NCBI GenBank assembly: GCA_030141605.1
Contig: JAQGDQ010001727.1
Location: forward strand, 1-27,884
Length of the DNA: 27,884 nucleotides
Direction of reading: 5' to 3'
From: Tubiluchus corallicola
Lineage: Eukaryota > Animalia > Priapulida
Part shown: piece after piece, positions 1-27,368 of the stretch
Numbering within the stretch: position 1 is the first letter of the stretch
Layout: the number at the start of each line of letters is the position of its first letter
Program-made: the position numbers and the translations under genes
Notes under the pieces: model-generated
Seen by the model: the letters and a program-made list of their open reading frames with translations, nothing else
Told to the model about the DNA's origin: nothing
Database searches by the model: none

Positions 1-384
1 GGCATTTATAATTGTGTATAATTTACATTTATAAAGTTTTTAGAGGAAGCCTATCAGAGTCAGAATAATTGGGTAATTATGTGGGCAATTTGGCACAATG
101 CCAAATACTGCTTATCCTACAGGCTTGTATGTTCATTCATAAACCTGTTTGCCAGGACAGTTCCAGGCAAAGCAAGTAAGCAATTTATTGTCATTATAGC
201 ATAATACATACAATGAAATTTATGTGGCTCAAATAGGATAAACAGTTATAAATACTATAACTAGTGATATGCCATACTGGCGTATTTCTCGACACCAACC
301 ATTTCAAGTTGTGTCTTTCAGTTTATTGATTAATAATGTATTGTTATGTAGGCCTTCTTGATTAATATAAGTACTGTTATTTAG

Positions 385-745
385 GGCTTCTGCTATCAGA
401 AGGTCGCCTATGGAAAGAACAGCGAAAATTTGCTCTTAGCAAGCTGCGAGAATTTGGCATGGGAAAGGTTAGCATCGAGCAGAAGATCAAAGAGGAGATA
501 TCCTGCTTTCTTGCTGAATGCAAGAGCAAAAGCATCGAGTGCTTTGACATCCAACTGTTGCTTGGCAACAGCGTCTCAAATGTCATCTGCTCGATTATAT
601 TCGGAAGTCGGTACGAGTATGACGATATGGAGTTTCAAAAGCTGATGGGAGCCATAAACTCCAATGCTACAAATATTTGCAATGTGGTTTTCTTTCTTGT
701 TGATGCGTTGCCATTTATTCGCTTCCTGCCGAAAATACGACCAAG
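385..745 (+). CDS. P450 exon 2, plus-strand copy (no exon 1 on this strand in the window)
   Basis: Same protein as 11402-11762; one synonymous difference (GTC/GTG Val, ~575); canonical AG/GT boundaries. Confidence 0.92.
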
Positions 746-777
746 GTATATAGCGTCGCCTAGGTTTAAATTAATTC

Positions 778-1060
778 ATAATAATAATAATAATAATAAT
801 AATAATCTTTATTTAAAGTCGGCTTTTGCATCAACAATTAACATTAGCTCAAAGAGCTATTATCACCGACTGTAAATTACAACCTACAACTATAAAACAG
901 AGACTATTATTACCCCACTTTTACCCTAAATACCACGCGTCAGGCAGGGCAACAGCAGGTACCATTTTTAAAGTCTTTGGTATGACCCGGCCGCTGGTTC
1001 GAACTCACGACCTCCCAGACGGAAAGCAGACGCATTGCCACTACACTAAACCGTCTGGTC
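778..1060 (-). mobile_element. tRNA-derived SINE in P450 intron 2 (left arm)
   Basis: Reverse complement shows Pol III A box TAGTGTAGTGG, B box GAGTTCGAACC, core GGTCATACCAAAGACTTTAAAAATGGTACC and an (ATT)n tail. Confidence 0.8.
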
Positions 1061-1520
1061 ATGAAAGGTATTTTCAGCTAAAGCTAATAGGAATTTTACT
1101 TTAGTAATATTCAGATCTGGAATGAATTATTTAGTGCAACAATTAAATCTACAAATAATGCAACAATATGTTGTCCTGCCAAGATTTACGAATCTGTAGA
1201 AATTACGGGACACTCAAAGGGTGCAGTAAGTTGCTTCCTGAAAATGTGGCATTGTTGGTTCCTAAGCTCCATATAAAGATACATGAACACTTAGTGAAGT
1301 TTATGGTACTTAATTATTAATACGTAACTCACTTATTTAACAACTTTGTTTATACATGACGTTGAAAATGTGGCCCAATTGGAAATGTGGTTTGTTCATT
1401 GTCCAAAATTTTGAGGCAAATGGCCGTGAACGTGGTGCAAATTATGTTAGAAACTCAGTTCAAAATAAATTCTCCAGATCTGCTTCTGCAAGAACTTTCA
1501 TGCTTATGTTCAATAATTTG

Positions 1521-1582
1521 AAAAAGGAATCATGGCTTCATTGCTCACAAAGTTTCCATTTTTGTCCAGGTGGCACTCGGGT
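1521..1582 (-). pseudogene. Antisense fragment of a paralogous P450 exon 5 inside intron 2 (mirrored at ~10568-10629)
   Basis: 52/62 nt identical to exon 5 (4672-4733); translates PECHLDKNGNFVSNEAMIPF vs PEHHLDQNGNFVRNEVMIPF. Confidence 0.85.
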
Positions 1583-1596
1583 AATGAGTTGCAAAA

Positions 1597-2421
1597 CCAT
1601 GCTCAGGGTCCATGAGTGTAGAGACAACTCTATGAAGCCATGCTCAGGATCCATGAGTATAGAGCCAACTCTATGAAGCCATGCTCAGGATCCATGAGTA
1701 CAGAGCCAATTCTATGAAGCCATGCTCGGGGTCCATGAGTATAGAGCCAACTCTATGAAGCCATGCTCGGGGTCCATGAGTACAGAGCCAACTCTATGAA
1801 GCCATGCTCAGGGTCCATGAGTGTAGAGCCAGCTCCATGAAGCCATGCTCAGGGTCCATGAGTATATCGCCAATTCTATGAAGCCATGCTCGGGGTCCAT
1901 GAGTATAGAGCCAACTCTATGAAGCCATGCTCAGGATCCATGAGTATAGAGCCAATTCTATGAAGCCATGCTCAGGGTCGATGAATATAGAGCCAATTCT
2001 ATGAAGCCATGCTCGGGGTCCATGAGTATAGAGCCAACTCTATGAAGCCATGCTCAGGATCCATGAGTATAGAACCAATTCTATGAAGCCATGCTCAGGA
2101 TCCATGAGTATAGAGCCAATTCTATGAAGCCATGCTCGGGGTCCATGAGTATAGAGCCAACTCTATGAAGCCATGCTCGGGGTCCATGAGTGTAGAGCCA
2201 ACTCCATGAAGCCATGCTCAGGATCCATGAGTATAGAGCCAATTCTATGAAGCCATGCTCAGGATCCATGAGTATAGAGCCAACTCTATGAAGCCATGCT
2301 CAGGGTCCATGTGTATAGAGCCAATTCTATGAAGCCATGCTCAGGGTCCATGAGTGTAGAGCCAACTCTATGAAGCCATGCTCAGGATCCATGAGTATAG
2401 AGCCAACTCTATGAAGCCATG
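1597..2421 (+). repeat. 41-bp minisatellite, ~20 units
   Basis: Consensus ATGAAGCCATGCTCRGGRTCCATGAGTATAGAGCCAAYTCT; exact 41-nt period from 1632 to 2411 (19 intervals). Confidence 0.97.
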
Positions 2422-2776
2422 ATCCCTTTTTCAAATTACTGAAGATCATTTTCTTAGTAATTATTGTTGATTCAGATATTTATTAAACTTGAAAATCACC
2501 TCAAATTGAAATTTCAAATTCTTTGTATGCAAACTTTTATGTAAGCTTGGCTGTTAATAACTATTAACATGAACTGCAAGTCAGATCCATCGAATGCCGT
2601 TGTGTCTATTGTAGGTGTTGCACAGGCAGAATTGTAGCATAAAAATAATCCATCTTCAAAGCAAGTAAATGCTGTTTAGTAAACAGTTGGCACAGTGCCA
2701 GTCAGCTCCAGCTTGTGTTACCAATTGAAGATCCGACATAAAAGAGTTACTCTCATATTGCGACTTCACTTTTCAG

Positions 2777-2946
2777 ATATGAAGCAATTCTAAAAAATAA
2801 TGAGGATGTTTCCGAGTTTATTAAGCGGCGAATTGACGAACATCTAGAAAGACACGATCCTAGTAACACGAACGACTTTATTGATGCTTACTTGAATGTT
2901 CTGAAGGAGGAAAAACAAAATGGAGTCACAGATTCTACATTCACAG
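2777..2946 (+). CDS. P450 exon 3, plus-strand copy
   Basis: Identical by eye to 9204-9373; DFIDAYL; phases match the flanking exons. Confidence 0.9.
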
Positions 2947-3584
2947 GTGTTTAAATTAAATTATTTTATACTGGCATCTTGCAAAACGTTTAGCTAAGAT
3001 TTATATAACAGAGATTATAGTAGCCAGATAAAAAAATCAATAATTTAATGTAACCAGACAACTTGATGTGTAACCACAGTATAATTTAATGCAACCATAC
3101 TACCTTGGAAATAAATATAAAGAACGGCGAGTGTTAATGCTAAGAACAATCAATACTTTCCAGTTTCTTGTACATGTAGCGATAACCCTTTTCACAGTTT
3201 CGCAACGTGCACACGCATAGTTGCTGTAGATCAAAGGTTAAGTGTACCTACTACCACAGAAACGCGTCTTAACTAAAACCGTCACGTGACACGTGGGTAA
3301 AGCAAAGTCATCTGCCGCATTAATTCAGCATCATCAGTTGTTTTACGTGGACTTCACTTAATTATGCATTAGTCTATGCGTAAAGTGATTTACTGGCAAG
3401 ATGTTGCTTGGAAACAGGAAAAAATGAACTAGGTAATGTTCTAGCTAGCTGTTAAAACATGTTAAAAGTTCCTTCTGATTGTCATATGTCTGTTTTAACT
3501 AAAACTTTCTGTCGCGAGTTAAAAAATAAATCTTTAATAACAAGTAATAAAAGTAAAATGAAAAACTGAGTGTTTTTTTATTAG

Positions 3585-3809
3585 CAATGGAGTTGACACT
3601 TGTGACCTTGGATCTCTTTACTGCTGGTTCTGAGACAACTACTACTACTCTGAGATGGGGTTTTCTCTTCTTAATGAAGCATCCAGGTGTTATGAAGAAG
3701 GTACAGGCAGAGATCGATGAAGTTGTGGGTCGAAGTCGGCTGCCAAATTATGATGATAGGACCAAAATGCCGTACACAGAAGCAACGATTATTGAAATAC
3801 AGAGATTAG
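3585..3809 (+). CDS. P450 exon 4, plus-strand copy
   Basis: AGSETT and EIQR motifs; three synonymous differences from 8341-8565. Confidence 0.93.
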
Positions 3810-3992
3810 GTGAGTCGGTCAAGAATCATTGGTCAGTGAAATGTCGGTCAAGAATCATTGGTCAGTGAGATATAAGTTACAAGCTTTCTGACGGAACCAT
3901 GACCGGTGGCTTGGTGATTAGGTGAGTCGGTGAAGAATCATTGGTCAGTGAGTTACAAGCTTTCTGAATGAACCATGACCCGAGGCTTGGTA
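3804..3992 (+). repeat. Nested tandem duplication of the exon 4/intron 4 junction (mirrored at ~8158-8346)
   Basis: GTCGGT(C/G)AAGAATCATTGGTCAGTGA occurs three times. GATTAG/GTGAGTCGG occurs at 3804 and 3916, each followed further on by GTTACAAGCTTTCTGA..GAACCATGACC..GGCTTGGT. Confidence 0.85.
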
Positions 3993-4099
3993 TCAGAATG
4001 TGGAAGCATGCCATTTTTTCTGACTTACTATTTCGCTTTGTAAGTGGTATTTTTTGTGTACATGCATTTGTAGTTTGTTTGATTTATCTTTGCTTTGTT

Positions 4100-4340
4100 T
4101 TTCTTTCTTTCTCTCTGTCTTTTCCTTTTCTCTGTCATTTTCTCTTCCTCTCTCTCCCTCTTTCCATCTCTCTGTCTCTCTCTCTCTTTCCCTCTCCCCC
4201 TCTTTGTCTCTCTTTCTCACTCTCTCTCTCTCACTCTCTCTTTCTGTCTTTCTCTGTCATTCTGTCTCTCACTCACTCTCTCTCTCTCTCTGTCTTCTCT
4301 CACTCTCTCTCTCTCTCTCTCTCACTCTCTCACACACACT
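4100..4340 (+). repeat. Compound (CT)n polypyrimidine microsatellite (mirrored at ~7815-8050)
   Basis: Visible CT/CTCA/CTGT runs. Confidence 0.95.
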
Positions 4341-4523
4341 TTTAAAAAACTGGAACATTTTTAAACTAATACAGTCCACTCCCCTATATGAAACACCTAG
4401 TTCTGTAAAATTGAGAAGCATATTTGTTTGTTATTTTAGCAACCCAGATTACAAATTATTGGACAAATTACAGCTTCATTTGCCATTAAATCTGTCTATG
4501 ATGTTGTTTTTGTTCATGAACAG

Positions 4524-4739
4524 GTAACATTCTTCCGTTTGGTGGTCCACACACTGCATCGGAGGAGGTAAATTTTAAAGGTTATACAATTCCTGCCAGG
4601 TCCGTGGTCTTGCTAAATCTCACCTCTATATTCATGGACCCTGCTGTGTTTCCTAATCCGGAAGCTTTTAGACCCGAGCACCACTTGGATCAAAACGGAA
4701 ACTTTGTGCGCAACGAAGTGATGATTCCTTTTTCTGTTG
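4524..4739 (+). CDS. P450 exon 5, plus-strand copy
   Basis: gaacag/GT acceptor; KGYTIP, meander FRPEHHL, PFSV; G/gtaagt donor; 216 nt. Confidence 0.92.
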
Positions 4740-5178
4740 GTAAGTAAAATACTAGAAACAGCCAAACCAAAAGTCATATAATGCTGTTACTTATTAAACA
4801 GACTGTATTTCATCCTCGTACTTTATATATAGTGACATATGTAATGTAGCTAATGTTGTTCTTTTGATTGTTCGTGAACTAAAAACCTACGAAATTCATT
4901 TATTTCAAATTAAATGCATATAGTCCATAAAATTGTACATAACACAAAAAGCAAAGCTAAAATGTAACATAGAGCTAACCAGAAAAATTAGCTCTATACT
5001 TTTCTATGAAATCTATGAAAAGTGTTTGTTGAAAAATGAAAATGCTAGAACAGTAAACAAGGCACATCCTGGCTAGAAATCAGAAGTTACTAGAAAGCAG
5101 TTTCCTCAAATATTTCTTTAAGGTGATAAGGTAAGAAAATGATGCCAAAAATTCAAAGATTTTTGTTGCCGTTGTTGT

Positions 5179-5299
5179 TCTCCCCCCCCCTCTCTCTCCC
5201 TCTCCCCCTCTCTCTCTCTCTCTCTCTCTCTCCCTCTCTTTCTCTCTCTGTCTTTCTGTTTATCTCTGTCATTCTGTCTCCCTCTCTCTCTCACTCTCT
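5179..5299 (+). repeat. (CT)n / poly-C microsatellite (mirrored at ~6850-6975)
   Basis: Visible; length differs by a few nt between the arms. Confidence 0.95.
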
Positions 5300-5736
5300 T
5301 TAGGAACTAATCGTTAAACACACAACTTATCCTATGTGTTTTAAAGCACTAAAGTTGCGTTTCACTACATAGTTTGGCACTGACCTTCATTGTCATTGTT
5401 AATTGTCTAATATGATCCGTTCTTCCGCATCTACCTAGAAACTCTGGAAACTCGCCAATCTTCAAGAAACGATATTTGATTGGTCGACTGTTTTGAGCTC
5501 TCATCTTGATGGTTAGTTAAATTTCTGAGCACAGACCGAGGGTGTATCTAGACCTGTACTTTTCTGTACTTTTACCCATATTTCTATGGATTATTGCTAC
5601 ACATTCAGTGCTATTGGTACGTAGGAAGCTCCTTCAGTGATGCGATATGTATGTGATCGCAGAAACCGAGCTGTTCAAAGGCCGAGTTTGCGAAAAATTG
5701 AGGTTAAAAATCGATCAATTTCGTTTTGATCATAGG

Positions 5737-5950
5737 GTCCCTTATATGCGAGGTAATTTACCCGGTTTTCTGTTACGCGGGACCTGAAGATATTGTCCCT
5801 TATAACCAAAAGTCCCTTATATCCGAGTACCTTATATTACGAAGATTTTTACATAGGAAACACGTTACTAAAAATCGGGACCGGTGTTGGTGGTCCCTTA
5901 TATGCGAGTGTCCGGTATAAGCACGTACCTTATACCCGAGGTTAACTGTA
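5737..5950. mobile_element. Truncated Tc1/mariner-type MITE end in intron 5
   Basis: Six subterminal GT(C/A)CCTTATA motifs and terminus CGAGGTTAACTG followed by TA; no matching left TIR found. Confidence 0.55.
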
Positions 5951-5977
5951 ATAACACCAGCTTGTGCTTTGTTTTAG

Positions 5978-6156
5978 GTCGCCGTGTCTGCATTGGTGAA
6001 AGCTTGGCAAAGATGGAACTTTTTCTCTTCTTTACTAGCATTCTCCAGAATTTCAATATCATGCTACCAGACGATGCAACCGAGCCCTGCATGGAAGCCG
6101 TCGTAGGACTTACTGCAGCTCCTAAACCTTATCAAATGAAAACGATGCCCCGGTAA
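5978..6156 (+). CDS. P450 terminal exon 6 with the heme-ligating Cys (single copy, in the spacer)
   Basis: gttttag/GT acceptor; [26 protein letters not shown]...[16 protein letters not shown]. With exon 5 it completes PFSVGRRVCIG (FxxGxRxCxG). Exons 1-6 sum to 1527 nt = 508 aa + stop. Confidence 0.95.
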
Positions 6157-6385
6157 TTTTCATGCAAACTTTCGCAGTGCTACGCACAAGTCGTATGCTT
6201 AATCCGATGTGATCTTTCTCTTAATCTAATCAGTTTAGTATTTACTCAAAGAATTAGCAAACACAATATTCACTGTGTGTGAATGAATGTTCATTAGATT
6301 ATGTTATGGAGTTTCATACTTGGTGTGTTTAAGTGCATTGTATTAGTACGGTAATATTTTTAGCTACAGCTTACAAACCATAGTG

Positions 6386-6450
6386 CAGGGGTTTGCAAAT
6401 TGCGGCCCGCGAAGAGATTTCTTAACCTAATGAAAGTGCGGCCCGGGCTA
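6386..6450 (+). mobile_element. Possible hAT (Charlie-like) terminal fragment in the P450 3' region
   Basis: CAGGGGTTTGCAAATTGCGGCCCGCG plus a second GCGGCCC, resembling hAT-Charlie termini recalled from memory; no opposite TIR or TSD seen. Confidence 0.4.
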
Positions 6451-7414
6451 TTAATTGAGTGTATCCAGCTGAAGCCACGATCCCAAAGATAGTGCGGGTA
6501 CTTTTTTCTACTAGATCGGATGCCATTAACCCTTACAAGACGGTTGTAGCTTAATGTCACTGTACTACACAGACTGTGTGATACACATTACTAATATGCA
6601 TTGTACTGAAATTAACACTATCTGTCCTGAAAGTAGAAATATATGGTTTGTAATATAAATTTTAATAACTTCTAAACTAGTTTACTGAGTGTAGTAGTAA
6701 TGATTTACGCAGGTCGGATGCAAAAAATCGTTATTAGGCCTGACAATTAACAATGACAATGAAGGTCAGTGCCAAACTATGTAGTGAAACGCAACTTTAG
6801 TGCTTTAAAACACATAGGATAAGTTGTGTGTTTAACGATTAGTTCCTAAAGAGAGTGAGAGAGAGAGGGAGACAGAATGACAGAGATAAACAGAAAGACA
6901 GAGAGAGAAAGAGAGGGAGAGAGAGAGAGAGAGAGAGAGAGGGGGAGAGGGAGAGAGAGAGGGGGGGGGGAGAGAACAACAACGGCAACAAAAATCTTTG
7001 AATTTTTGGCATCATTTTCTTACCTTATCACCTTAAAGAAATATTTGAGGAAACTGCTTTCTAGTAACTTCTGATTTCTAGCCAGGATGTGCCTTGTTTA
7101 CTGTTCTAGCATTTTCATTTTTCAACAAACACTTTTCATAGATTTCATAGAAAAGTATAGAGCTAATTTTTCTGGTTAGCTCTATGTTACATTTTAGCTT
7201 TGCTTTTTGTGTTATGTACAATTTTATGGACTATATGCATTTAATTTGAAATAAATGAATTTCGTAGGTTTTTAGTTCACGAACAATCAAAAGAACAACA
7301 TTAGCTACATTACATATGTCACTATATATAAAGTACGAGGATGAAATACAGTCTGTTTAATAAGTAACAGCATTATATGACTTTTGGTTTGGCTGTTTCT
7401 AGTATTTTACTTAC

Positions 7415-7630
7415 CAACAGAAAAAGGAATCATCACTTCGTTGCGCACAAAGTTTCCGTTTTGATCCAAGTGGTGCTCGGGTCTAAAAGCTTCCGGATTA
7501 GGAAACACAGCAGGGTCCATGAATATAGAGGTGAGATTTAGCAAGACCACGGACCTGGCAGGAATTGTATAACCTTTAAAATTTACCTCCTCCGATGCAG
7601 TGTGTGGACCACCAAACGGAAGAATGTTAC
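7415..7630 (-). CDS. P450 exon 5, minus-strand copy; no terminal exon follows on this strand
   Basis: GNILPFGGPHTASEEVNFKGYTIPARSVVLLNLTSIFMDPAVFPNPEAFRPEHHLDQNGNFVRNEVMIPFSV; G/gtaagt donor. Read-through gives ...PFSVGK* before the heme Cys. Confidence 0.9.
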
Positions 7631-8340
7631 CTGTTCATGAACAAAAACAACATCATAGACAGATTTAATGGCAAATGAAGCTGTAATTTGTCCAATAATT
7701 TGTAATCTGGGTTGCTAAAATAACAAACAAATATGCTTCTCAATTTTACAGAACTAGGTGTTTCATATAGGGGAGTGGACTGTATTAGTTTAAAAATGTT
7801 CCAGTTTTTTAAAAGTGTTTGTGAGAGAGTGAGAGAGAGAGAGAGAGAGAGTGAGAGAAGACAGAGAGAGAGAGAGTGAGTGAGAGACAGAATGACAGAG
7901 AAAGACAGAAAGAGAGAGTGAGAGAGAGAGAGTGAGAAAGAGAGACAAAGAGGGGGAGGGAAAGAGAGAGAGAGACAGAGAGATGGAAAGAGGGAGAGAG
8001 AGGAAGAGAAAATGACAGAGAAAAGGAAAAGACAGAGAGAAAGAAAGAAAAACAAAGCAAAGATAAATCAAACAAACTACAAATGCATGTACACAAAAAA
8101 TACCACTTACAAAGCGAAATAGTAAGTCAGAAAAAATGGCATGCTTCCACATTCTGATACCAAGCCTCGGGTCATGGTTCATTCAGAAAGCTTGTAACTC
8201 ACTGACCAATGATTCTTCACCGACTCACCTAATCACCAAGCCACCGGTCATGGTTCCGTCAGAAAGCTTGTAACTTATATCTCACTGACCAATGATTCTT
8301 GACCGACATTTCACTGACCAATGATTCTTGACCGACTCAC

Positions 8341-8565
8341 CTAATCTCTGTATTTCTATAATCGTTGCTTCTGTGTACGGCATTTTGGTCCTATCATCAT
8401 AATTTGGCAGCCGACTTCGACCCACAACTTCATCGATCTCGGCCTGTACCTTCTTCATAACACCTGGATGCTTCATTAAGAAGAGAAAACCCCATCTCAG
8501 AGTAGTAGTAGTAGTCTCAGAACCAGCAGTAAAGAGATCCAAGGTCACAAGTGTCAACTCCATTG
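8341..8565 (-). CDS. P450 exon 4, minus-strand copy (I and K helices)
   Basis: [16 protein letters not shown] (AGxETT) and [12 protein letters not shown] (ExxR); ttattag/CA acceptor and G/gtgagt donor; 225 nt. Confidence 0.93.
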
Positions 8566-9203
8566 CTAATAAAAAAACACTCAGTTTTTCATTTTACTTT
8601 TATTACTTGTTATTAAAGATTTATTTTTTAACTCGCGACAGAAAGTTTTAGTTAAAACAGACATATGACAATCAGAAGGAACTTTTAACATGTTTTAACA
8701 GCTAGCTAGAACATTAACTAGTTCATTTTTTCCTGTTCCCAAGCAACATCTTGCCAGTAAATCACTTTACGCATAGACTAATGCATAATTAAGTGAAGTC
8801 CACGTAAAACAACTGATGATGCTGAATTAATGCAGCAGATGACTTTGCTTTACCCACGTGTCACGTGACGGTTTTAGTTAAGACGCGTTGCTGTGGTAGT
8901 AGGTACACTTAACCTTTGATCTACAGCAACTATGCGTGTGCACGTTGCGAAACTGTGAAAAGGGTTATTGCTACATGTACAGGAAACTGGAAAGTATTGA
9001 TTGTTCTTAGCATTAACACTCGCCTTTCTTTATATTTATTTCCAAGGTAGTATGGTTGCATTAAATTATACTGTGGTTACACATCAAGTTGTCTGGTTAC
9101 ATTAAATTATTGATTTTTTTATCTGGCTACTATAATCTCTGTTATATAAATCTTAGCTAAACGTTTTGCAAGATGCCAGTATAAAATAATTTAATTTAAA
9201 CAC

Positions 9204-9373
9204 CTGTGAATGTAGAATCTGTGACTCCATTTTGTTTTTCCTCCTTCAGAACATTCAAGTAAGCATCAATAAAGTCGTTCGTGTTACTAGGATCGTGTCT
9301 TTCTAGATGTTCGTCAATTCGCCGCTTAATAAACTCGGAAACATCCTCATTATTTTTTAGAATTGCTTCATAT
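9204..9373 (-). CDS. P450 exon 3, minus-strand copy
   Basis: ttttcag/A acceptor; (R)YEAILKNNEDVSEFIKRRIDEHLERHDPSNTNDFIDAYLNVLKEEKQNGVTDSTFT contains the CYP2-type DFIDAYL; G/gtgttt donor; 170 nt, phase 2 to 1. Confidence 0.9.
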
Positions 9374-9728
9374 CTGAAAAGTGAAGTTGCAATATGAGAG
9401 TAACTCTTTTATGTCGGATCTTCAATTGGTAACACAAGCTGGAGCTGACTGGCACTGTGCCAACTGTTTACTAAACAGCATTTACTTGCTTTGAAGATGG
9501 ATTATTTTTATGCTACAATTCTGCCTGTGCAACACCTACAATAGACACAACGGCATTCGATGGATCTGACTTGCAGTTCATGTTAATAGTTATTAACAGC
9601 CAAGCTTACATAAAAGTTTGCATACAAAGAATTTGAAATTTCAATTTGAGGTGATTTTCAAATTTAATAAATATCTGAATCAACAATAATTACTAAGAAA
9701 ATGATCTTCAGTCATTTGAAAAAGGGAT

Positions 9729-10553
9729 CATGGCTTCATAGAGTTGGCTCTATACTAATGGATCCTGAGCATGGCTTCATAGAGTTGGCTCTACACTCAT
9801 GGACCCTGAGCATGGCTTCATAGAATTGGCTCTATACACATGGACCCTGAGCATGGCTTCATAGAGTTGGCTCTATACTCATGGATCCTGAGCATGGCTT
9901 CATAGAATTGGCTCTATACTCATGGATCCTGAGCATGGCTTCATGGAGTTGGCTCTACACTCATGGACCCCGAGCATGGCTTCATAGAGTTGGCTCTATA
10001 CTCATGGACCCCGAGCATGGCTTCATAGAATTGGCTCTATACTCATGGATCCTGAGCATGGCTTCATAGAATTGGTTCTATACTCATGGATCCTGAGCAT
10101 GGCTTCATAGAGTTGGCTCTATACTCATGGACCCTGAGCATGGCTTCATAGAATTGGCTCTATATTCATCGACCCTGAGCATGGCTTCATAGAATTGGCT
10201 CTATACTCATGGATCCTGAGCATGGCTTCATAGAGTTGGCTCTATACTCATGGACCCCGAGCATGGCTTCATAGAATTGGCTCTATACTCATGGACCCTG
10301 AGCATGGCTTCATGGAGCTGGCTCTACACTCATGGACCCTGAGCATGGCTTCATAGAGTTGGCTCTGTACTCATGGACCCCGAGCATGGCTTCATAGAGT
10401 TGGCTCTATACTCATGGACCCCGAGCATGGCTTCATAGAATTGGCTCTGTACTCATGGATCCTGAGCATGGCTTCATAGAGTTGGCTCTATACTCATGGA
10501 TCCTGAGCATGGCTTCATAGAGTTGTCTCTACACTCATGGACCCTGAGCATGG
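9729..10553 (-). repeat. 41-bp minisatellite, right-arm copy
   Basis: Reverse complement of 1597-2421 with the same unit number and a few substitutions. Confidence 0.97.
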
Positions 10554-11089
10554 TTTTGCAACTCATTACCCGAGTGCCACCTGGACAAAAATGGAAACTT
10601 TGTGAGCAATGAAGCCATGATTCCTTTTTCAAATTATTGAACATAAGCATGAAAGTTCTTGCAGAAGCAGATCTGGAGAATTTATTTTGAACTGAGTTTC
10701 TAACATAATTTGCACCACGTTCACGGCCATTTGCCTCAAAATTTTGGACAATGAACAAACCACATTTCCAATTGGGCCACATTTTCAACGTCATGTATAA
10801 ACAAAGTTGTTAAATAAGTGAGTTACGTATTAATAATTAAGTACCACAAACTTCACTAAGTGTTCATGTATCTTTATATGGAGCTTAGGAACCAACAATG
10901 CCACATTTTCAGGAAGCAACTTACTGCACCCTTTGAGTGTCCCGTAATTTCTACAGATTCGTAAATCTTGGCAGGACAACATATTGTTGCATTATTTGTA
11001 GATTTAATTGTTGCACTAAATAATTCATTCCAGATCTGAATATTACTAAAGTAAAATTCCTATTAGCTTTAGCTGAAAATACCTTTCAT

Positions 11090-11369
11090 GACCAGACGGT
11101 TTAGTGTAGTGGCAATGCGTCTGCTTTCCGTCTGGGAGGTCGTGAGTTCGAACCAGCGGCCGGGTCATACCAAAGACTTTAAAAATGGTACCTGCTGTTG
11201 CTCTGCCTGACGCGTGGTATTTAGGGTAAAAGTGGGGTAATAATAGTCTCTGTTTTATAGTTGTAGGTTGTAATTTACAGTCGGTGATAATAGCTCTTTG
11301 AGCTAATGTTAATTGTTGATGCAAAAGCCGACTTTAAATAAAGATTATTATTATTATTATTATTATTAT
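11090..11369 (+). mobile_element. tRNA-derived SINE (right-arm copy)
   Basis: A box 11102-11112, B box 11144-11154; (ATT)n tail one unit shorter than in the left copy. Confidence 0.8.
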
Positions 11370-11401
11370 GAATTAATTTAAACCTAGGCGACGCTATATA
11401 C

Positions 11402-11762
11402 CTTGGTCGTATTTTCGGCAGGAAGCGAATAAATGGCAACGCATCAACAAGAAAGAAAACCACATTGCAAATATTTGTAGCATTGGAGTTTATGGCTCCC
11501 ATCAGCTTTTGAAACTCCATATCGTCATACTCGTACCGACTTCCGAATATAATCGAGCAGATGACATTTGACACGCTGTTGCCAAGCAACAGTTGGATGT
11601 CAAAGCACTCGATGCTTTTGCTCTTGCATTCAGCAAGAAAGCAGGATATCTCCTCTTTGATCTTCTGCTCGATGCTAACCTTTCCCATGCCAAATTCTCG
11701 CAGCTTGCTAAGAGCAAATTTTCGCTGTTCTTTCCATAGGCGACCTTCTGATAGCAGAAGCC
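11402..11762 (-). CDS. P450 exon 2, minus-strand copy
   Basis: ttatttag/GG acceptor; GLLLSEGRLWKEQRKFALSKLREFGMGK (WxxxR C-helix)...NVICSIIFGSRYEYDD...PKIRP; AG/gtatat donor; phase 1 to 2. Confidence 0.92.
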
Positions 11763-12096
11763 CTAAATAACAGTACTTATATTAATCAAGAAGGCCTACA
11801 TAACAATACATTATTAATCAATAAACTGAAAGACACAACTTGAAATGGTTGGTGTCGAGAAATACGCCAGTATGGCATATCACTAGTTATAGTATTTATA
11901 GCTGTTTATCCTATTTGAGCCACATAAATTTCATTGTATGTATTATGCTATAATGACAATAAATTGCTTACTTGCTTTGCCTGGAACTGTCCTGGCAAAC
12001 AGGTTTATGAATGAACATACAAGCCTGTAGGATAAGCAGTATTTGGCATTGTGCCAAATTGCCCACATAATTATCCAATTATTCTGACTCTATTAT

Positions 12097-12116
12097 TATA
12101 TATATATATATATATA
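12097..12116. repeat. (TA)n microsatellite at the outer breakpoint of the right arm
   Basis: About 10 TA units starting 6 nt beyond the end of arm homology. Confidence 0.9.
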
Positions 12117-12982
12117 ATGCGTACTCGATTAAAGTTAACATAGTAGCCCACCAAGTGCTATGTTATCTCCCAGCTACTAATCGGGGATATCCTTGGGCAC
12201 AGGTTAACTGGTACGTTTGACTATTTTATATTATTGTTTTAACCTAGTAATATAACGGAAACAATAAAGTCATAGTTTTTGTCGAAACGTTTATTATCAT
12301 TTATTGATCGATTGTACTAAAATGCTGTTAGGCCTTTATAAGGTAAAAGACCAATATGTCTCTTGTATACTTGGACAGAAGAAAATCATTTTCATTACTC
12401 TAAATTTAAATTTATGTTGTATTGTCATCATACGTTTTTGAGTTTTGGATAGTGCTGCCACCTTCAGGTGTTCTTGTTAAAATTGTCAAATATTTCTCTT
12501 TACTGTTTAAATTTCCATTGGCTTCTACAGTCTTTATGAATGCATAATCTCTAAACCTGTTTTCACACCTGTATGATTTCACCTGTAGTTTTTGGTCACT
12601 TGGTTTTCTGCATTTCAACATGACACTACTTCACTGTTTATGTAGACACTTCAGAATAAAATCTTGAAACTAAATTTCAAGTTTTTAGCTACTGTAGTTT
12701 TCAATATTTTAGAGCATTCCTTATTCTGAACTAATGTTTACACAATCATCCGGTTTTCCTTTAAAATCAAAAAGAAATAAAAACGCTGATAGCTTGTACC
12801 TATATTGAACCGCAACAAAGTCTTATGGCGCTTTCAGGTTAGTGAGGTTACTAACCAAGTTAACTCGCAAGTGTGTTCTGATTAGAGAGCAAAACCTGCT
12901 GTGAGTTACTCTCCTACAGTATAAGTGCAAGCTGACACTCACTTCTCTAATCACTGCAACAAGTGTTGACAGTAACTCACCA

Positions 12983-13145
12983 AGGCGTTCACACTAGACA
13001 GTAACACACAGGAAATCAACTGGCAGCAACCGTCGAAGAGTTTGCAATAATCTGTCGACAGTAACTCGCAAAGCAGTTCATACTTGAGAGTTCGCTGACA
13101 GAAAGAAAACTTTTGATAGAAGACTCGCTAGTGTGAAATGATCCT
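12983..13145. mobile_element. Possible small degenerate TIR element in P450 intron 1
   Basis: AGGCGTTCACACTAG ... CTAGTGTGAAATGATCCT inverted ends; GACAGTAAC-like motifs repeated inside and just to the left. Confidence 0.35.
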
Positions 13146-13892
13146 GTGTATAGCCTAGGTCTATAACACTACCACCTAAGTCTATAGAACAAGACAGCTC
13201 TAGAAAGTTTCTCACCCATCCACTCTGCACAAATGAAACATGGCGCTTCTTAAGTTTTCTGGATGAGTTTTGCTGTATGCTAGCAGCATGATGTTGGACA
13301 AGTGTGCACGACGTCAATGTGTGTGGTAATAGCAGCGGAATGTTTTGATTTTTTTACATTGTGTAGGATGCATTTCACATGACCACAGTGCACAGCGCTC
13401 ATTCGTTCCCTACACACCATGCATTTGACCTTCAGCTGACCTTACACTTTGACTTATTGGTAGAATTTGTTTATTTACTGAACATCTATTTTCAGCTTCG
13501 AGTCTGCCTTCAACCCTTTCAAACATGTCTGTATCCTACACCACAACAAGAATGCTCTTCAAAGAACTCAGGATAGATGTACTCATCTTGCTAGTGACCC
13601 TCTTTCTACTCTTGAGCAAAGACATAAGACTGTAGACCTTGTGAACTGCTTGAAAATAATTATCAGTGCTTTATCATCTGATAGTTTCAAAAGGCATTCG
13701 AGAGATTACCACTTACAGATAGTTACTATCAAGGTCCTTATTTCTTTGTATAACTGTATAAGGTATTCTTGGATAAGGTGTTAGTACAAGTGATAACATA
13801 GAGCTTTTACGGACATACTATAAAGGGTAATACTAAATAGCATTGCTAGCTAGAAACCTAGAAAATTAGAAAACGCTTAGAGTTGCACTTAC

Positions 13893-14268
13893 CATGCATG
13901 TTACCCTTAGCATCGCCATATGTGCGTGACAAAATGAAACTTGTGTGCCTACCAGAAAACACATCTCCAAATTTCAGAAAAGCTTCACGTCCCGTTTCGT
14001 AATCGTTTAGTACAACGTGGAAGGCATTACCCAAGTAAAGACCGAAAATATCGCCATAACGTTTCTTTAGGTCCATCAAGTAGTAGCCGATATGTTGTTT
14101 ACCTACAGATAACAATGAACCTACTAACGGAAGGCCGACTGGTCCTGGAGGTGCCCCACGCGGACGTCTTAAACGATTCCACGCTAGTAACACTATTAGG
14201 AATGCAGTAAATATTGAGAGTGCAGTTAAAGCACTTACAGACATCAGACGATCGAGAAAATAAAACAT
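13893..14268 (-). CDS. Cytochrome P450 (CYP2 clan) exon 1: membrane anchor and proline-rich hinge
   Basis: MFYFLDRLMSVSALTALSIFTAFLIVLLAWNRLRRPRGAPPGPVGLPLVGSLL...KRYGDIFGLYLG...VVLNDYETGREAF...FSGR: hydrophobic anchor, basic stop-transfer and PPGP hinge. Ends in phase 1 at CATG/gtaagt (13893), with an in-frame alternative donor at 13905. Start may be the ATG at 14268 or 14244. Confidence 0.93.
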
Positions 14269-14596
14269 AATTCTCTTCCAAACGTTTGTAATTCAACAAT
14301 TTCTACGGACAGTGTACAGTAACTGACTACTGCTTGTACGGTAGATAGCTGCGCCATCAGTTGGGCGAAACATCAAAATAAAAGTGTTTTTGGAGCGGCG
14401 ATTCGACCATCAAAGAACCAAGCGGCTGATGACTGTTATGGATGTATGCCACGCAAAAAGATCTCAATGGAACGTCTCTAATTCTGGAAAATATTTCATT
14501 TTCGGGAGTAGCTATAAGGACCAAATCACTGGCATTAGAAAGTTATTATGTGAACATATAATGGGTAGTGGTATAGCAACTTTAGCTTTAAAATTA

Positions 14597-15051
14597 TTTA
14601 TTGGCACTGTCTGACTTCTTTGGAACAAAATAGCGTGTAATACAGCAATGATAGTTCACAGAAGTTGTTACCTGTTTCAATATGCTTACTGTTTTCCACG
14701 AAGATCACGCTGCCAATACATGATATCACACAGAAACCATGAGAATGTCACAAGTATTTTTAAAATCCCTAAACAAGCGGCCATCTTGCATATAAGTGCC
14801 AAGCATTTCTAAATGACATTCAGCTCCCTGTTTTTTAATTCTCAAGCATTTCAATTTTTCAAAACATCTGACTACAAAATTCAACTGTCTCGACTTGCAC
14901 TGAAATTTCAACACACATACATGTAATTTCATTTACCAAACAGTTTTTAGTTTTTATTACCAAGCTGTAACCTCAAGTATGCTATTTCTTTAGAAAGAAA
15001 AGCAACAACAACTATCTCGTACATGTGATGAACAGCAACATTAAGTTTATT
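14597..15051 (-). terminator. Candidate polyadenylation signals of the giant-exon gene
   Basis: Minus-strand AATAAA at 15046-15051, 14953-14958 and 14597-14602; which one is used cannot be told from sequence. Confidence 0.35.
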
Positions 15052-16441
15052 TCATGTATTAGTAGTTGTTCAAGACAAAAGTTCTCAAAATCCATGCAAC
15101 CACATTGTAAATAATTACAATGATTTATAAAAGTGTGTACTATATAACTAATGCAGTAATCAGCACGCAGTATTCATCGTTTCTGTGAAATTGCTGCTGG
15201 TATGCAATAGTTTGAAAAATAAACAGTAAAGCAAGTTGTAGGTTATTTAGTGATTTCAACCACTAGGCTGTGAATTACGCAAATAAAGGTGAATCTAAAA
15301 AATCAGATCAGAAACAGTCTTCCGTTTCTGTGTAACACAGGATACAATATTTCATATCACCGATTTTTAAGCCATAAAATCTACAAAATTGCGTATGTGC
15401 ACATTATAACCTATAAGAGTTCTACACCATCGCTATGTTCGGTTGTACATTTCAAAAGAAATATAATAACAATATAATATAACAAACTTTAGCTCTCACA
15501 ATAAAAAAACCATGATTAGTATGACATTAAATATTTTGTAAGACAGAGCGAGACGAGAGAGAAATTCATAATAACAAAGCGGCTTGAATACAAAACCACA
15601 AATACATTATTAATTAGCCAAGAAAAGCAACGTTAAGTGATACTGTTCACTCTGTTCACAGCGACCATGTGACAGTGTTCACATTATTTAAGACCTAGCT
15701 ACATTTCAGTGACTAAGGTAATCCTTTAACCATATTACTGCTATCTTGTCACTATACCCCGTATAGAAAAGTCAATTCCTGCCCAATGCGCACAGACACT
15801 GTAGGCGTGGAATTTGTTTAAAACCTATGAGAATGTATCATCTACGCCACGTTTCACTTTCACCGATATGTACACCCAGATACAAAAATTTTAACAAAAT
15901 CAAACTGTACATTTAAACCTCTCTCTCCAAGAGAATAAAGCACACACTTTCTTCCTGTTATAACGGCGCAATAGTAAAGAAGTCTGGTCAAAAATCTGTT
16001 TTCACATACGCAATCCGACTGATCAGCAAATTTATAATTAATATAAATGTGGCTGGTGCTTACAAAAACAGACTTCTACCAGTATGTGAACCTTTGTAAC
16101 TCATAGACAAGTTTCGCAAACACATACGCTGTCTTTGATATATAAAAGCAAACGTATGTTGAATAAATACTATTCAGATATTTACAAGGAGTATAATATG
16201 ATTAAGATAATAATAAACTTTAGTTTGCATCAAGACAATTGATAATTATAAAAGCAATAGGAATCATCGAGTTTTTATGACCTAGTTAGAGTAGTTATTT
16301 TAGTAATTTTATATTAATGTGATTAAAATTTTTGAAGAAGAAGAAGAAAACAGGTCCAAAAGAAAACTCGTCTATGAGCTTTAGGAACGCCCGCATTGAA
16401 GAAAATGTGTGCTTTAATGTTAAATATTTATCACTGTGACA

Positions 16442-16550
16442 TCATTCTTCGCTCTTCTCTCGTGTGACGTCATCATCTGGATGTTGATGTGTATGGCTGG
16501 TCTGCGTCATGGTTACCGTACCTTGCATGTCTGCTTCATCAGTCATGTAC
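16442..16550 (-). CDS. Terminal coding exon of the same gene
   Basis: ttttcactttcag/G; (R)YMTDEADMQGTVTMTQTSHTHQHPDDDVTREKSEE*; phase matches the preceding exon. Confidence 0.78.
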
Positions 16551-17327
16551 CTGAAAGTGAAAATAATGGCCACGTAAATCTGGCGATATGTCAAAATTTT
16601 CTTATAGAATATACAATACTGTATCTTTTTACGTGAGCCCAAATTACAAGCTGGCTTCACTGACTTTATTATATTTTCACCGAATTCAAGTTCCGCAAAG
16701 CTCCTGGTTACAAAATTCCTTGCCCTCTGCCAATATGACTTCTATGCTTTGTTCACCAACTGATCTTACATCAGATCAGCCCTTGAAGATTCGAAAAATA
16801 ACCATTAGATTTGCTAACGGGGCACAAGCCATTGGATAAAAAACAATGGAATAGCAGCAAATATTACTCACAGCAAAGAGTTAAAATTAAGATTACAACA
16901 GCACTCAAATCAAGGTACACTGCAAATTCACCCTGAACAATTAACCCGTGACATTGATTCTCGTTACAACAGACTTGCAGTAATAGTTGAAGTCATGCCA
17001 AGTGAAGCTGAGGTTTTGCAGGTGCAACAGCAACTAACACACACAAAAATGGAATTATTATCAACAATGGCAAATGGAAAATTGGAACCAATATCAGATG
17101 TATCTACTAAGGAGATAAGAGGTACTATTCAAAAGGTCTATTATTTAAATTAGTCCAACAAGCAAAGCACTGTCACCAGGTGCATTTAACATAAGACATA
17201 GAAACAGAAACAGATTTCTGATGGTACCAATTCAACGAATTAGTGAGAACAACAAGCAAAAACAGAACCACCACCACCACCAGACAGATATCTACCAGGA
17301 AAAAAGTGACAGAATTTCAGCTGGTAC

Positions 17328-17477
17328 CTATCGATCAGAGCCTGCACGTCAGCATCAAGTTCACTGGGACGCTCGTCACCAGTGTCAGAAACGGAACTAT
17401 CGGTTGTTCTTATAACTTCTTCTCGGCCGTCGGGATGGCGGATTGTCTTAGTGTGTATTTGTTTTTTGACAATAATT
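17328..17477 (-). CDS. 150-nt exon of the same gene
   Basis: gattgcag/A...GATAG/gtacca; (R)IIVKKQIHTKTIRHPDGREEVIRTTDSSVSDTGDERPSELDADVQALID; phase 2 to 2. Confidence 0.75.
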
Positions 17478-17969
17478 CTGCAATCAGAATTGCTAACAAT
17501 CAACTCACTGTTATTGTGCACAAAAATGATAACAGCGCACAATCGGGGCTTGCCTATCTTAAAAGGCATAAGAATGAATACGAAAGATATCCTTTTGCTA
17601 CAATACTCCAAAGTGATCGAACAATTGTGGGTAAAAGAAATGCAATGAAGATTACGAAATCATCTTATCAAAGGTTTAAAAAGCAACTGAAATGTGGAAG
17701 TTACCTCACTGGTTTTAAAAAACTTTACTTAAACTTGTCCGTTTGTTCAAAAGACAATTAAAAAAATTACTTCACATGTTAAGGCAGTTAAATCTGGCAT
17801 CAAACATTTTTAATGATGGCGGTAGCTCTAATGCTAGGCAAAACATCAGAACTGCAACGAAACATATCCGACAAAATGAAAATAAACAGACAAGCCCACG
17901 CAGACACAAACACATTCACCTGCAAAGAGAGCCATTAAATGTTAGAAATTTAATATTTGATGATTATAC

Positions 17970-18039
17970 CTTGACTGCTTGGCGACACCGTCTTCTGGAG
18001 CAAGGCTTTCTTCACGTGGTACGTCGTCATCTGGAAATT
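17970..18039 (-). CDS. 70-nt exon of the same gene
   Basis: tgtcatttcag/AA...CAAG/gtataa; EFPDDDVPREESLAPEDGVAKQS; phase 1 to 2; a second in-frame AG lies 9 nt downstream. Confidence 0.75.
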
Positions 18040-19223
18040 CTGAAATGACAAACAAAAAATTCGACTATTCAAATGTTGATTCAACAAAAATTATACCTAC
18101 TGAGAAAAGTCAGAAAAACGACAGTGGGATACTTGGAAATGACAGATAACGGGGCCTAAACACATCATTATTGTGCCTTGACTTTAGATACACACCACTT
18201 AAAATATGGAAAGATTTTTTGTTTTGAATGCTGAGAATAAATGAAAAACCAACACCTTATTATGTGAAGCATTAATTTCAACCAAGCGGCCTTATTTCAC
18301 ATGTCCGAATGATGTTTCATGACACATCATCAATCAATAGTCAATTTCATTATCATTGACATTATCTTCAACTCTACTTACGACGTTATCAAAAAATACG
18401 GGGAGAATCAAGGCAAGTCATGAATTGCATAAAAGTAACCAGAAACATCCAGATCAGTAACATGTTTCTGGAAATGCAGAAAACTATAATAAAGCATTCA
18501 CAGTGCATGCAACAATGCAGAATGCAAAAAGCTGCTATGAAGTTTTTTATAGGAAACTATAGACACATGGGAAACTTTATGGTCACGCGAATGCCGGCAA
18601 TGAGGCATAGAAGCAAAGCTACTATATCACCTCAGTTGGTGGCTAAAATTATGACTTATCATAACTTACTTGCTATATTGGCATACATGCTGTATTAAGT
18701 GTAAATATAAAACTGCCAGAAGGCTTGTTTTATAGCAAATTTCTTTACTTAATTAGTTTTTAAAGGCAATTTGGCTTAATATAAGTCATTAATTCGCAAT
18801 GGCAAATTTCAAAGCCAGCTAACATTTAACACAGAAGAGGACAGGTACGGATGACTTCATGGCAAGCTTATGTAACTAAATAAAGATGATTGGGGTATCT
18901 TTGCACCCCATTGCCAGTAGGCGAGGGTTAATAGTTCTGCACACTGGCAGTCTGTGTTCAGCACACTAGTGTGTAGATTAACAATGCTGATGAAACAAAA
19001 TCTCACTTGCTAACAAAGAGAATCCTCTAGGACAAGACACTGAACTGGCAAACCTGTATATTCATTTTTCCTCAATGATAGAAACATCCAGGACAGTATA
19101 GAGGAAATTTTTTGTTCACCAAGCCATTCACTAGCCAAGTTCAGATGGTGATTAACTTCATAGAAATGCATGCATTATGAACACGAAACTATTTCACTAG
19201 CATAGAGAATGCAACTGACTTAC

Positions 19224-19265
19224 CAGATTCTGTTACTTCCTGTGATGGTCCTTTCGCACCTTCTT
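19224..19265 (-). CDS. 42-nt symmetric exon of the same gene
   Basis: ctctaatacag/AA...TCTG/gtaagt; EEGAKGPSQEVTES; phase 1 to 1. Confidence 0.75.
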
Positions 19266-19975
19266 CTGTATTAGAGAAACAGGACACAAAAAATATAAGA
19301 AAGTTACAAAAATGCGAAATACTAAAATACGTTAATACTTTGTAAATCATTTAAAAAGATTTCTTGCTCTTTCTGATGAACATGCAAAAAATTAAGCTTT
19401 AACGCTTTCAAAACTTCACCATGCGTAGTGTTACCACATGTAGCAGAATAATAAAGATACGAGACAATCAGATTTGTGGAGAAATAGAAAAATCTAATTG
19501 AAGTAAAATAAGCATGATTATGGGCATCAACAATAACAGCTATTTTCAAATAGACAAAGAAAATTAATAACATTGCAAATAAAGTAATAAAACTGCTTCA
19601 CATATAGCCCACATACAAGATGGACAATATCGATCATAATACTGAAGACACTGTAAACAAATGCACGGCAACAAATGCATAAACATACTAAAAACACCAA
19701 AAATCATGCAAAAAACATCATCAGCGTATATGCAATCATAAAAACTAGCACTGTAAAATAAAAATTAATTCTGGAATTCTAATAAATCAGAAAGCTAAGA
19801 ATAAAATAAAAAAACCTTGTCGTGCATAAATGAATGCAAATGTGCTGCATGACTGAAAAACAGACTGAATGACTGCATGTGTAAAACAAAAGACGAGTGC
19901 ACGAAATAAAAGTGTCCATCATGCGTAAAGTACACCTACATAGACATCCAACACGGCATGTCTACATGGTGGTAC

Positions 19976-25900: not shown

Positions 25901-27205
25901 ATAACTGCCTTGATATTTTTTCAGATTCACCTAGAGTTTCTTCAGACTGATAACCATCTGTAAAGTTATCATCTCTTGGTTTAGACATTTCAACATTCAA
26001 GTCTGAAGGCACACTTTCATCAGGTATTACAGATGGTGGTGATGGTGTTTCGTCAGGTGGTTGTTTCACTGGTTCTTCAACCGATGTCGTATCTTGAAGT
26101 GCATCCTCAGTTAAAACTAGTCCATCTTTAGTTACATCAAGCTGCAACGGTCCTGCAGACTCTCGTGATAATAATAATTCCGATGCAACAGACTCCGTGG
26201 GTTCTTGCAATTCCTCATCCAAAACAGGAGATGTTGATGCAACAGATTCCGTGGGTTCTTGCAATTCCTTATCCAAAACAGGAGATGTTGATGCAACAGA
26301 TTCCGTGGGTTCTTGCAATTCCTTATCCAAAACAGGAGATGTTGATGCAACAGATTCCGTGGGTTCTTGCAATTCCTTATCCAAAACAGGAGATGTTGAT
26401 GCAACAGATTCCGTGGGTTCTTGCAATTCCTTATCCAAAACAGAAGATGTTGATGCAACATCTTGGCCTGCAAATTGTTCTGGAAGTTCACTACGTTCTT
26501 CAACTGTTCTAAACAAATCATCATCGAAGCTCTTCTTCAATTGGCCTTCAAGTGGCGAGGCAGCTATTGGCTCTTCTGAAAGTTCTTCTGAATCAGGATG
26601 CCCTTCTTGCAATGTTACTGTCGCATGGTCATCATATTCAGAAATAAGTGTTTGTGTTTCAAAGGTTTTTTTTGTCGTTTCTTCTAAATGTTTTACTTCC
26701 GGAGAAGTCGATTCGTACTTCTCCATCATTTCTGTAACAAAAATTCCAGTTTTAATGTGCCGTTCAACAGCATCTCCCGTATCAATAAGCTTCAACTCCG
26801 GGCTCTGTGTAAAATCAGGCTGAGTCACTTCTTCTTGGAATATTGAACTTCTAATTTGTTTGTCATATTCTTCCTGTTTTTCAAAACCGAGCTGGGACAC
26901 CTCTTGATGATCAATGACACCTGCGACTTGTTCCAAATTTTCTTCTTCCTCCTCTTGGGCTTCTTGTCTTGCTTGAATTTCCTGCAAGTCGTAGACATCT
27001 TGTTCAAGTTCCTCCGTTGCTATTTCTGAGTAGGATCTTTCAGTTCTTTGTCGGCCTTCAGCAACCTCATCTTCATCTTCAAGCCTCTTTCCATCTTCCA
27101 CAAATGCCATGTTATCGAAAGCATAACCCTCCAGTTCAAGATCTTGATCAAGTGAAAAATGTTCTTCTTTTTCTGTTTTGTTACCTTCATCAGCAAGCAA
27201 TGTAT
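19976..27205 (-). CDS. Giant (7230-nt) acidic low-complexity exon, probably of a giant ankyrin (Ank2/UNC-44-like)
   Basis: 2412-codon open frame rich in E/D/S/T/P. Acceptor gtactaacatattctag/AT at 27205 (phase 1); probable donor GCAG/gtacca at 19976 (phase 1). ESVDEMGNVTKVITRRRV resembles the ankyrin C-terminal obscurin-binding motif. ANK/ZU5/death domains are not in the window, so the identity is inferred; the coding call itself is near certain. Confidence 0.8.
26182..26460 (-). repeat. 54-bp coding tandem repeat, ~5.2 copies (VASTSPVLDKELQEPTES)
   Basis: Near-identical DNA units with a 54-nt period. Confidence 0.95.
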
Positions 27206-27214
27206 CTAGAATAT

Positions 27215-27368
27215 GTTAGTACAAGTATTAGTAAAGATATGAGGTTAATTTTAGATGTGTTAGTAAACACCTATGCAGTATGTTCAACTTACTCAGCATA
27301 AATTAGTAAAAAAAATGCATTTCAGAGAAAATTAGTAGGACAAGGGAAGTTAGTAACAAAGCGTTAGT
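27215..27368 (-). promoter_or_regulatory. Cluster of seven ACTAAY motifs upstream of the giant-exon acceptor
   Basis: Plus-strand RTTAGT at 27215, 27227, 27259, 27302, 27331, 27349 and 27363; matches the branch-point/STAR-family (QKI, HOW, SF1) motif. Confidence 0.7.

Follow-up and report, generated by a model that had tools for sequence, protein, structure and literature searches.

The stretch of DNA analysed here, referred to as the window, comprises 27,884 nucleotides from the priapulid Tubiluchus corallicola (assembly GCA_030141605.1, contig JAQGDQ010001727.1, forward strand) and contains a gene of the cytochrome P450 family whose exons are distributed over both strands. It is confirmed that the assembled sequence holds two mirrored arms of 5.35 kilobases (kb), each with intact exons 2 to 5; the correctness of the assembly is a separate question. 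The layout is confirmed as well as unusual, the likeliest explanation being a rearrangement of a familiar type.

Organization of the locus

The two arms enclose a single-copy spacer (Table 1). They show 99.35% identity over 5,357 columns, with 23 mismatches and 5 gap openings according to self-BLAST, and a global alignment of one arm against the other counted 24 substitutions. The letter N is absent from the whole window. Exons 2 to 5 have equal lengths and AG/GT splice ends in both arms, in agreement with the first-pass annotation, which had called them intact. The same annotation had located exon 1 only on the minus strand and exon 6, which encodes the heme cysteine, only on the plus strand within the spacer, and the single tblastn matches of both exons in the window bear this out. 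A search of the spacer's minus strand for another in-frame terminal exon, however short, found none. Where intron 4 begins, there is a short internal duplication (3804-3991), in which the donor sequence of exon 4 recurs at 3916-3951 as a possible alternative donor.

Table 1. Features of the P450 locus (positions in the window; a dot denotes no strand).
Feature	Position	Strand	Evidence or remark
Left flank outside the left arm	1-55	.	No significant match to spacer or 12092-16400, either strand
Left arm: inverted copy of the right arm's 5.35 kb, collinear with exon 6	56-5407	+	Self-BLAST, alignment
Exon 2, left arm	385-745	+	
41-bp minisatellite, left arm	1594-2424	+	Mirrored at 9726-10553; equal unit number, 16 of 18 whole units identical
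Exon 3, left arm	2777-2946	+	
Exon 4, left arm	3585-3809	+	
Exon 5, left arm	4524-4739	+	
Single-copy spacer with the remainder of intron 5, exon 6 and 3' flank	5408-6741	+	1,334 bp
High-copy repeat in intron 5	5532-5950 (ends approximate)	.	Depth summed over contigs is thousands-fold that of single-copy sequence
Exon 6 (heme cysteine and stop)	5978-6156	+	Single tblastn match in window; Pfam p450
High-copy repeat 3' of exon 6	6385-6741 (left end approximate)	.	Severed precisely where spacer and arm meet
Right arm: last part of intron 1, exons 2-5, first part of intron 5; collinear with exon 1	6742-12091	-	Self-BLAST, alignment
Exon 5, right arm	7415-7630	-	Reading on into intron 5 meets a stop before the heme cysteine
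Exon 4, right arm	8341-8565	-	AG/GT ends, length equal to left-arm exon 4
Exon 3, right arm	9204-9373	-	AG/GT ends, length equal to left-arm exon 3
Exon 2, right arm	11402-11762	-	AG/GT ends, length equal to left-arm exon 2
AT run with 24-bp perfect dyad at the right arm's outer edge	12092-12116	.	
Exon 1 (ATG, membrane anchor, proline hinge)	13893-14268	-	Single tblastn match in window; Pfam p450

The P450 gene and its predicted product

Joining exon 1, either arm and exon 6 in a script gave the identical frame of 508 amino acids, which carries the motifs WxxxR, AGxETT, ExxR, a PERF-type motif and FxxGxRxCxG. Exon 1 and exon 6 each exceed the curated cut-off of the Pfam p450 family (PF00067). 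By its sequence, the product of the joined exons would be classified as a CYP2-like cytochrome P450, and that of either strand alone would not. The minus-strand copy as assembled, read into intron 5, comprises 451 amino acids with the C-terminus PFSVGK and without the heme cysteine, exactly as annotated before; the further proposal that a flip of the spacer would place exon 6 behind this copy and yield a complete P450 of 508 amino acids is upheld by the joined frame.

Among 41 relatives with lengths of 470-530 amino acids, the top two global matches are CYP2-like proteins of Priapulus caudatus, P0015 followed by P0155. The identity to P0015 amounts to 43, 51, 28, 61, 60 and 58% for exons 1 to 6. 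When exon 1 and exon 6 were compared separately with the 41 full-length relatives, P0015 or P0155 was the best match in each case. Best matches in Priapulus CYP2-like proteins for both terminal exons would fit a single split gene; at about 50% identity, an exon 1 derived from a paralogue would be compatible too. No protein of this very gene was found: exon 1 reached at best 49% identity (four matches among 409 candidates), and exon 2 at best 55% among the best 150 of 2,471 entries. In metagenome contigs, one of 401 candidate stretches was confirmed, a distant P450 with 30% identity (L001), and no close locus was detected.

The minus-strand transcript as assembled encounters no AATAAA from 7414 to 5408, the first one being located at 4904 within the left arm. 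A read-through RNA would form a duplex with roughly 0.5 kb of its intron 5, and ATTAAA hexamers at 7361, 7245 and 6666 could terminate the transcript earlier. On the plus strand, neither AATAAA nor ATTAAA occurs between the P450 stop (6157 onwards) and the spacer's end, with the first AATAAA found at 7250 in the right arm. The original poly(A) site may have been lost with deleted DNA, or a variant hexamer may serve in its place.

Divergence between the arms

The arms differ at 24 of 5,352 sites (0.45%), and the longest gap between the 24 substitutions is at most 854 base pairs (bp). Compared with the window, a spacer contig from the public sequencing run X1 (see below) deviates at 3 of 591 sites (0.51%; Fisher p 0.75 versus the arm difference). 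All four coding differences between the arms are synonymous, although replacement sites number 759 and synonymous sites 213 (Fisher p 0.002). At the intron rate, 1.7 replacements would be expected with one arm neutral; the probability of observing none is 0.18 in this case and 0.03 if both arms evolved neutrally. In the simplest reading of these differences, the arms would represent two alleles of a working gene. Such allele-like arms could result from a rearrangement between two homologues, from later exchange with working alleles, or from the false join of two haplotypes.

Joins and repeats

All four arm ends are sharp and are located in non-coding DNA, within introns. Beyond the inner arm ends no homology was detected (51 of 200 shuffles score as high), and a search for dyads of at least 5 bp at these ends was negative. 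AT runs with dyads, like the one bordering the right arm on its outer side, are known break sites. Bases 1-55 match 12092-16400 on neither strand (the score was reached in 196 and in 15 of 200 shuffles, respectively).

The join 5407/5408 is presumably natural, representing intron 5 running on into exon 6. At the join 6741/6742, in contrast, the high-copy repeat 3' of exon 6 ends abruptly. Repeat copies which match up to 6741 and then proceed with other letters are present in 24 contigs of run X1, 29 of X2 and 5 of X4. Since these other copies continue past 6741, the join cut a pre-existing repeat, and its sequence marks it as either a derived break or a false join. Microhomology at 6741/6742 is 0 bp on either side, as judged with continuation letters from other copies of the repeat rather than from this one. 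The sole match to the continuation of the repeat in the window has 3 mismatches and does not rise above chance (14 of 100 shuffles). A shared 5-bp word was considered as the mark of a clean staggered break and was rejected, the repeat continuation being absent from bases 1-55. The left end of the cut repeat presumably resembles a hAT element. On the basis of summed contig depth, high-copy repeats were also observed in intron 1 (about 150-290) and intron 2 (about 800-1050), with mirrored counterparts in the right arm; the one in intron 2 has what we take to be the look of a short interspersed nuclear element.

Contigs from public sequencing runs

Six public sequencing runs were available in the form of contigs only, and contig depth, which gives no copy number, provides hints only. 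Four of the runs contain part of the window's sequence, X5 has a share of 0.01, and the presumed RNA run X6 contributed 0 contigs, which carries no weight regarding expression. X1, X2 and X3 are labelled as one sample, possibly the one from which the assembly itself was made. Contigs of four of the six runs were placed on 5320-6830, and contigs of four of the six on 1-1500. Those of X1, X2 and X4 leave 5320-5523 and 6748-6830 with both inner joins uncovered, and X2, X3 and X4 are without cover on 1-100; contigs being subject to filtering, these gaps were counted neither way.

In X1, the arm contigs have depths of 15.6 and 18.4, the spacer contig 8.79 and seven contigs of other loci 5.5-10, so that the arms reach 1.8-2.1 times the depth of the spacer. 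The corresponding values in X2 are 153 and 197 for the arm, 215 for the spacer and 79-212 for seven other contigs, and X4 shows 5.7 for the arm as well as 9.65 and 7.3 for the spacer. The X2/X1 ratios at the arms (9.8 and 10.7) lie below those of all ten other paired places (12.4-38.4, median 22.8), with one-sided p values of 0.03 and 0.04 that are not independent and depend on a pairing by coordinates that involved judgement. The arm contig of X3 scales with X1 (2.1 versus 2.35-3.2 for seven repeat bins). Taken together, X1 and X3 are more in line with a doubled arm, whereas X2 and X4 favour a single copy. The density of restriction sites fails to explain the depth pattern of X2. A polymorphic real allele reconciles the runs only if X2 represents another genome.

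At the outer end of the left arm, one X1 contig tracks positions 29-146 with zero differences and thereby crosses the join 55/56. This contig breaks off within a run of three T, where a one-base slip is possible. The depth of the contig specific to the join is 6-8, about 40-50% of the arm depth, which suits a real duplicate or a heterozygous edge.

Origin of the split gene

The reading which we favour, at a probability of about 0.42, is a real inversion, probably polymorphic, which duplicated 5.35 kb in inverted orientation at its breakpoint and by which the gene would be knocked out in a manner revertible by ordinary recombination. The sharp intronic arm ends, the cut repeat, the blunt join, the allele-level difference between the arms, the synonymous nature of all four coding changes and the best matches of exons 1 and 6 in Priapulus CYP2-like proteins argue for it, and the arm depths of X1 and X3 together with the X1 contig at 55/56 add weak hints. 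The minus strand would ancestrally have carried exon 1, exons 2-5 and exon 6 in this order. The exon 2-5 block may have broken at its two ends, on different chromatids or homologues, and a further break may have occurred in the repeat after exon 6; blunt rejoining would have reversed the block together with exon 6, with loss of what remained of the repeat. A spacer flip subsequent to an inverted duplication would lead to an identical outcome. In that case each arm would be a working allele, the two placed face to face, and the resulting allele, devoid of a usable last exon, would be a null, the species relying on unrearranged alleles. Now and then, ordinary crossing-over between the arms would turn the spacer round and thus restore the gene, without any regulation.

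Several observations weigh against such an inversion. The arm/spacer depth is 0.71 and 0.92 in X2, which bears the same sample label as X1 and is about 20 times deeper, and 0.67 in X4. The X1 contig across 55/56 has 27 letters to the left of this join, four under the bar of 31 letters set for bridging, and its first 25 letters lie off the window. A clean inversion by staggered breaks predicts that the far flank continues the end of the inverted segment, with bases 1-55 as the missing continuation of the cut repeat; this prediction failed, and a deletion must be added. The duplication of 5.35 kb exceeds the maximum of 1.9 kb in a set of Drosophila inversions (PMC1885836). The lack of replacements is not significant if only one arm is neutral, and differences which are allele-level and all synonymous suit a false join of two haplotypes equally well.

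Such a false join is the core of an explanation by assembly or amplification artefact, which we regard as doubtful yet serious. Here, a single ordinary gene would be present and the contig would turn back on itself at 6741/6742, leaving one haplotype and continuing along the other in reverse, or a real duplicate would contain a misoriented spacer. In its one-gene version the edge at 55/56 would be a heterozygous indel in intron 1, and a large indel precisely at this position is a demanding requirement. The agreement of arm and spacer depth in X4 and in X2, the deepest run, speaks for an artefact, as do the allele-level arm differences, synonymous wherever coding, and the arm-specific letters at 575 and 1303, which alternate between runs in the manner of heterozygous sites. 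On the opposite side stand the 1.8- to 2.1-fold arm depth in X1, the similar behaviour of X3 and the X2/X1 arm ratios, the lowest of all paired places. Accurate long reads should, moreover, be able to phase arms with 24 substitutions at such short intervals. Mispriming requires some microhomology, whereas the join is blunt and shows none. Amplified long-read libraries do yield false inversions with a mean of 1,493 bp (10.64898/2026.06.11.730069), close to the 1,334 bp of the spacer, a source of error that would apply if the library in question had been amplified. Improbable, in our view, is a longer fold-back duplication, in which the plus copy would be complete with its own exon 1 to the left of the window, the minus copy would be a truncated duplicate and an indel would break the mirror at 55/56. 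A flip would then merely swap near-identical promoters and first exons, similar to CTRB1/CTRB2. This explanation needs no broken gene and accounts for the intact exons of the left arm, and the spacer collinear with the left arm, with the derived join at its far end, corresponds to the fold-back layout (PMC3907307). Opposed to it are bases 1-55, which match nothing in 12092-16400 on either strand, the 0 bp of microhomology at the fold-back join compared with its presence in 13 of 18 joins in PMC3907307, and the region to the right of exon 1, where the 3' end of another intact-looking gene follows and no second join was recognised.

The first-pass annotation had put forward a DNA flip-flop switch, with a truncated duplicate, an assembly error and trans-splicing as lesser alternatives. 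Regulated or frequent inversion of the spacer by the cells, turning the P450 on and off, is permitted by the geometry and by arms that are intact and near-identical, and yeasts, the one precedent encountered, switch their mating type across inverted repeats of 2 kb (PMC6692504). The idea nevertheless finds no support: the blunt cut passes through a repeat, the arms differ at allele level and two of the four runs placed on the arm give no sign of doubling. Neither inner arm end has a short dyad site, and the arms include entire introns along with repeats and microsatellites, which would also be expected of a simple duplication. The depth in X2 and X4, furthermore, does not suggest the species-wide fixed duplication which a developmental switch would need. 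A dedicated recombinase did not emerge from the three frames of the window compared with Pfam, and such a factor could be encoded elsewhere. We therefore rate a regulated switch as very improbable. Only marginally better placed, and still highly unlikely, is the broader notion that the last exon flips between the mirror copies often enough for both states to occur within one body or to be balanced in the population, with the off state also forming a hairpin RNA. Truncated duplicate and assembly error together outweigh the switch. Least credible of all is trans-splicing after the fashion of mod(mdg4), in which a minus-strand RNA with exons 1-5 would be joined to a plus-strand RNA with exon 6. 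The exons do lie on opposite strands, and the layout of mod(mdg4) is thought to stem from small inversions (PMC4528330). The two well-supported Drosophila melanogaster genes described in PMC4528330, however, are both of the BTB/zinc-finger type with many alternative 3' exons, whereas only one terminal exon and no known plus-strand start are present in the window.

Should the inversion be real, it would constitute a compact and revertible P450 knockout allele with one inter-arm crossover between off and on, and the arm-specific letters would let each flip be counted, offering a clean site for measuring rates of inversion between inverted repeats in an invertebrate. In case of an artefact, the locus would be a warning of false, gene-splitting fold-back duplications in this assembly. 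The locus would be surprising only with a frequent or regulated flip, of which we saw no evidence.

Comparison with known systems

A literature search, with most subscription papers outside its reach, retrieved no report of a P450 gene split in such fashion. Recombination between inverted repeats reverses the intervening DNA and does so recurrently and without regulation in humans (PMC3961182, PMC6748972), with a rate of 5.35e-5 per generation in one chromosome Y case (PMC6748972, PMC3961182). With 5.35 kb and 99.35% identity, the arms lie above the threshold of at least 1 kb and 97% identity for inversions of this type (PMC3961182). In the human IDS/IDS2 (Hunter syndrome) and F8 intron 22 inversions (PMC4576756), a gene likewise adjoins an inverted partial copy of itself, and recombination turns a part and breaks the gene. 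The locus described here differs in that the inverted piece measures 1.3 kb and contains the last exon only, that the partial copy has 99.35% identity and an open frame, and that the reference represents the broken state. HsInv0030, involving CTRB1/CTRB2 (PMC6748972, PMC3961182), is similar in that inverted gene copies swap a terminal exon upon flipping; both CTRB genes are complete in either orientation and both orientations are proven, in contrast to the single last exon and the one known orientation at the present locus.

Regarding the origin of the arms, the staggered-break inversions of Drosophila, which make up 17 of 29 inversions (PMC1885836), resemble the favoured reading, as formerly unique gene sequence is inverted at both ends of the segment. 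At the T. corallicola locus, too, unique sequence is present in two mutually inverted copies, one at either end of the inverted segment. The duplications in Drosophila are at most about 1.9 kb (PMC1885836), and the far breakpoint of the P450 locus, unlike theirs, is not rejoinable without a deletion. Fold-back inverted duplications (PMC3907307) likewise consist of inverted copies around a kilobase-sized single-copy spacer. The spacer of 1,334 bp falls within their range of roughly 0.8-70 kb (766-70,466 bp; PMC3907307). These duplications are of megabase scale, however, and mostly carry 2-8 bp of inverted microhomology (PMC3907307), none of which is seen here; insertions in place of microhomology occur in 5 of 18 joins (PMC3907307). 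The flip-flop mating-type switching of Ogataea and Ascoidea (PMC6692504) shares the arrangement of kilobase inverted repeats which contain part of a gene and flank an invertible region. In these yeasts both orientations have been observed and the cell type is switched (PMC6692504), whereas a single assembled orientation is available for the P450 locus. Finally, mod(mdg4) possesses many alternative 3' exons behind common 5' exons (PMC4528330), compared with one exon 6 in the window.

Neighbouring features

The minus strand also harbors an acidic open frame of 2,417 codons (19962-27215), in which Ser and Glu account for 27.8% and S/E/T/D/K/P for 54.2% of the residues. No Pfam hit, no homologue among proteins of 4,231-5,000 amino acids and no Atlas hit were obtained for this frame. 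The long exons of giant ankyrins contain about 25% Ser and Glu and more than 55% S/E/T/D/K/P (PMC5135030); the frame is close to them in composition, a label which expresses likeness and not a result. A tandem coding repeat of 54 bp with about five copies is located within the frame at 26182-26460. Downstream of the long frame, at about 16490-19270 on the minus strand, short acidic exon-like pieces were observed, one of them within the open frame 17240-17659. These pieces are probably the 3' end of the long-frame gene, which would point at the promoter of the P450 gene.

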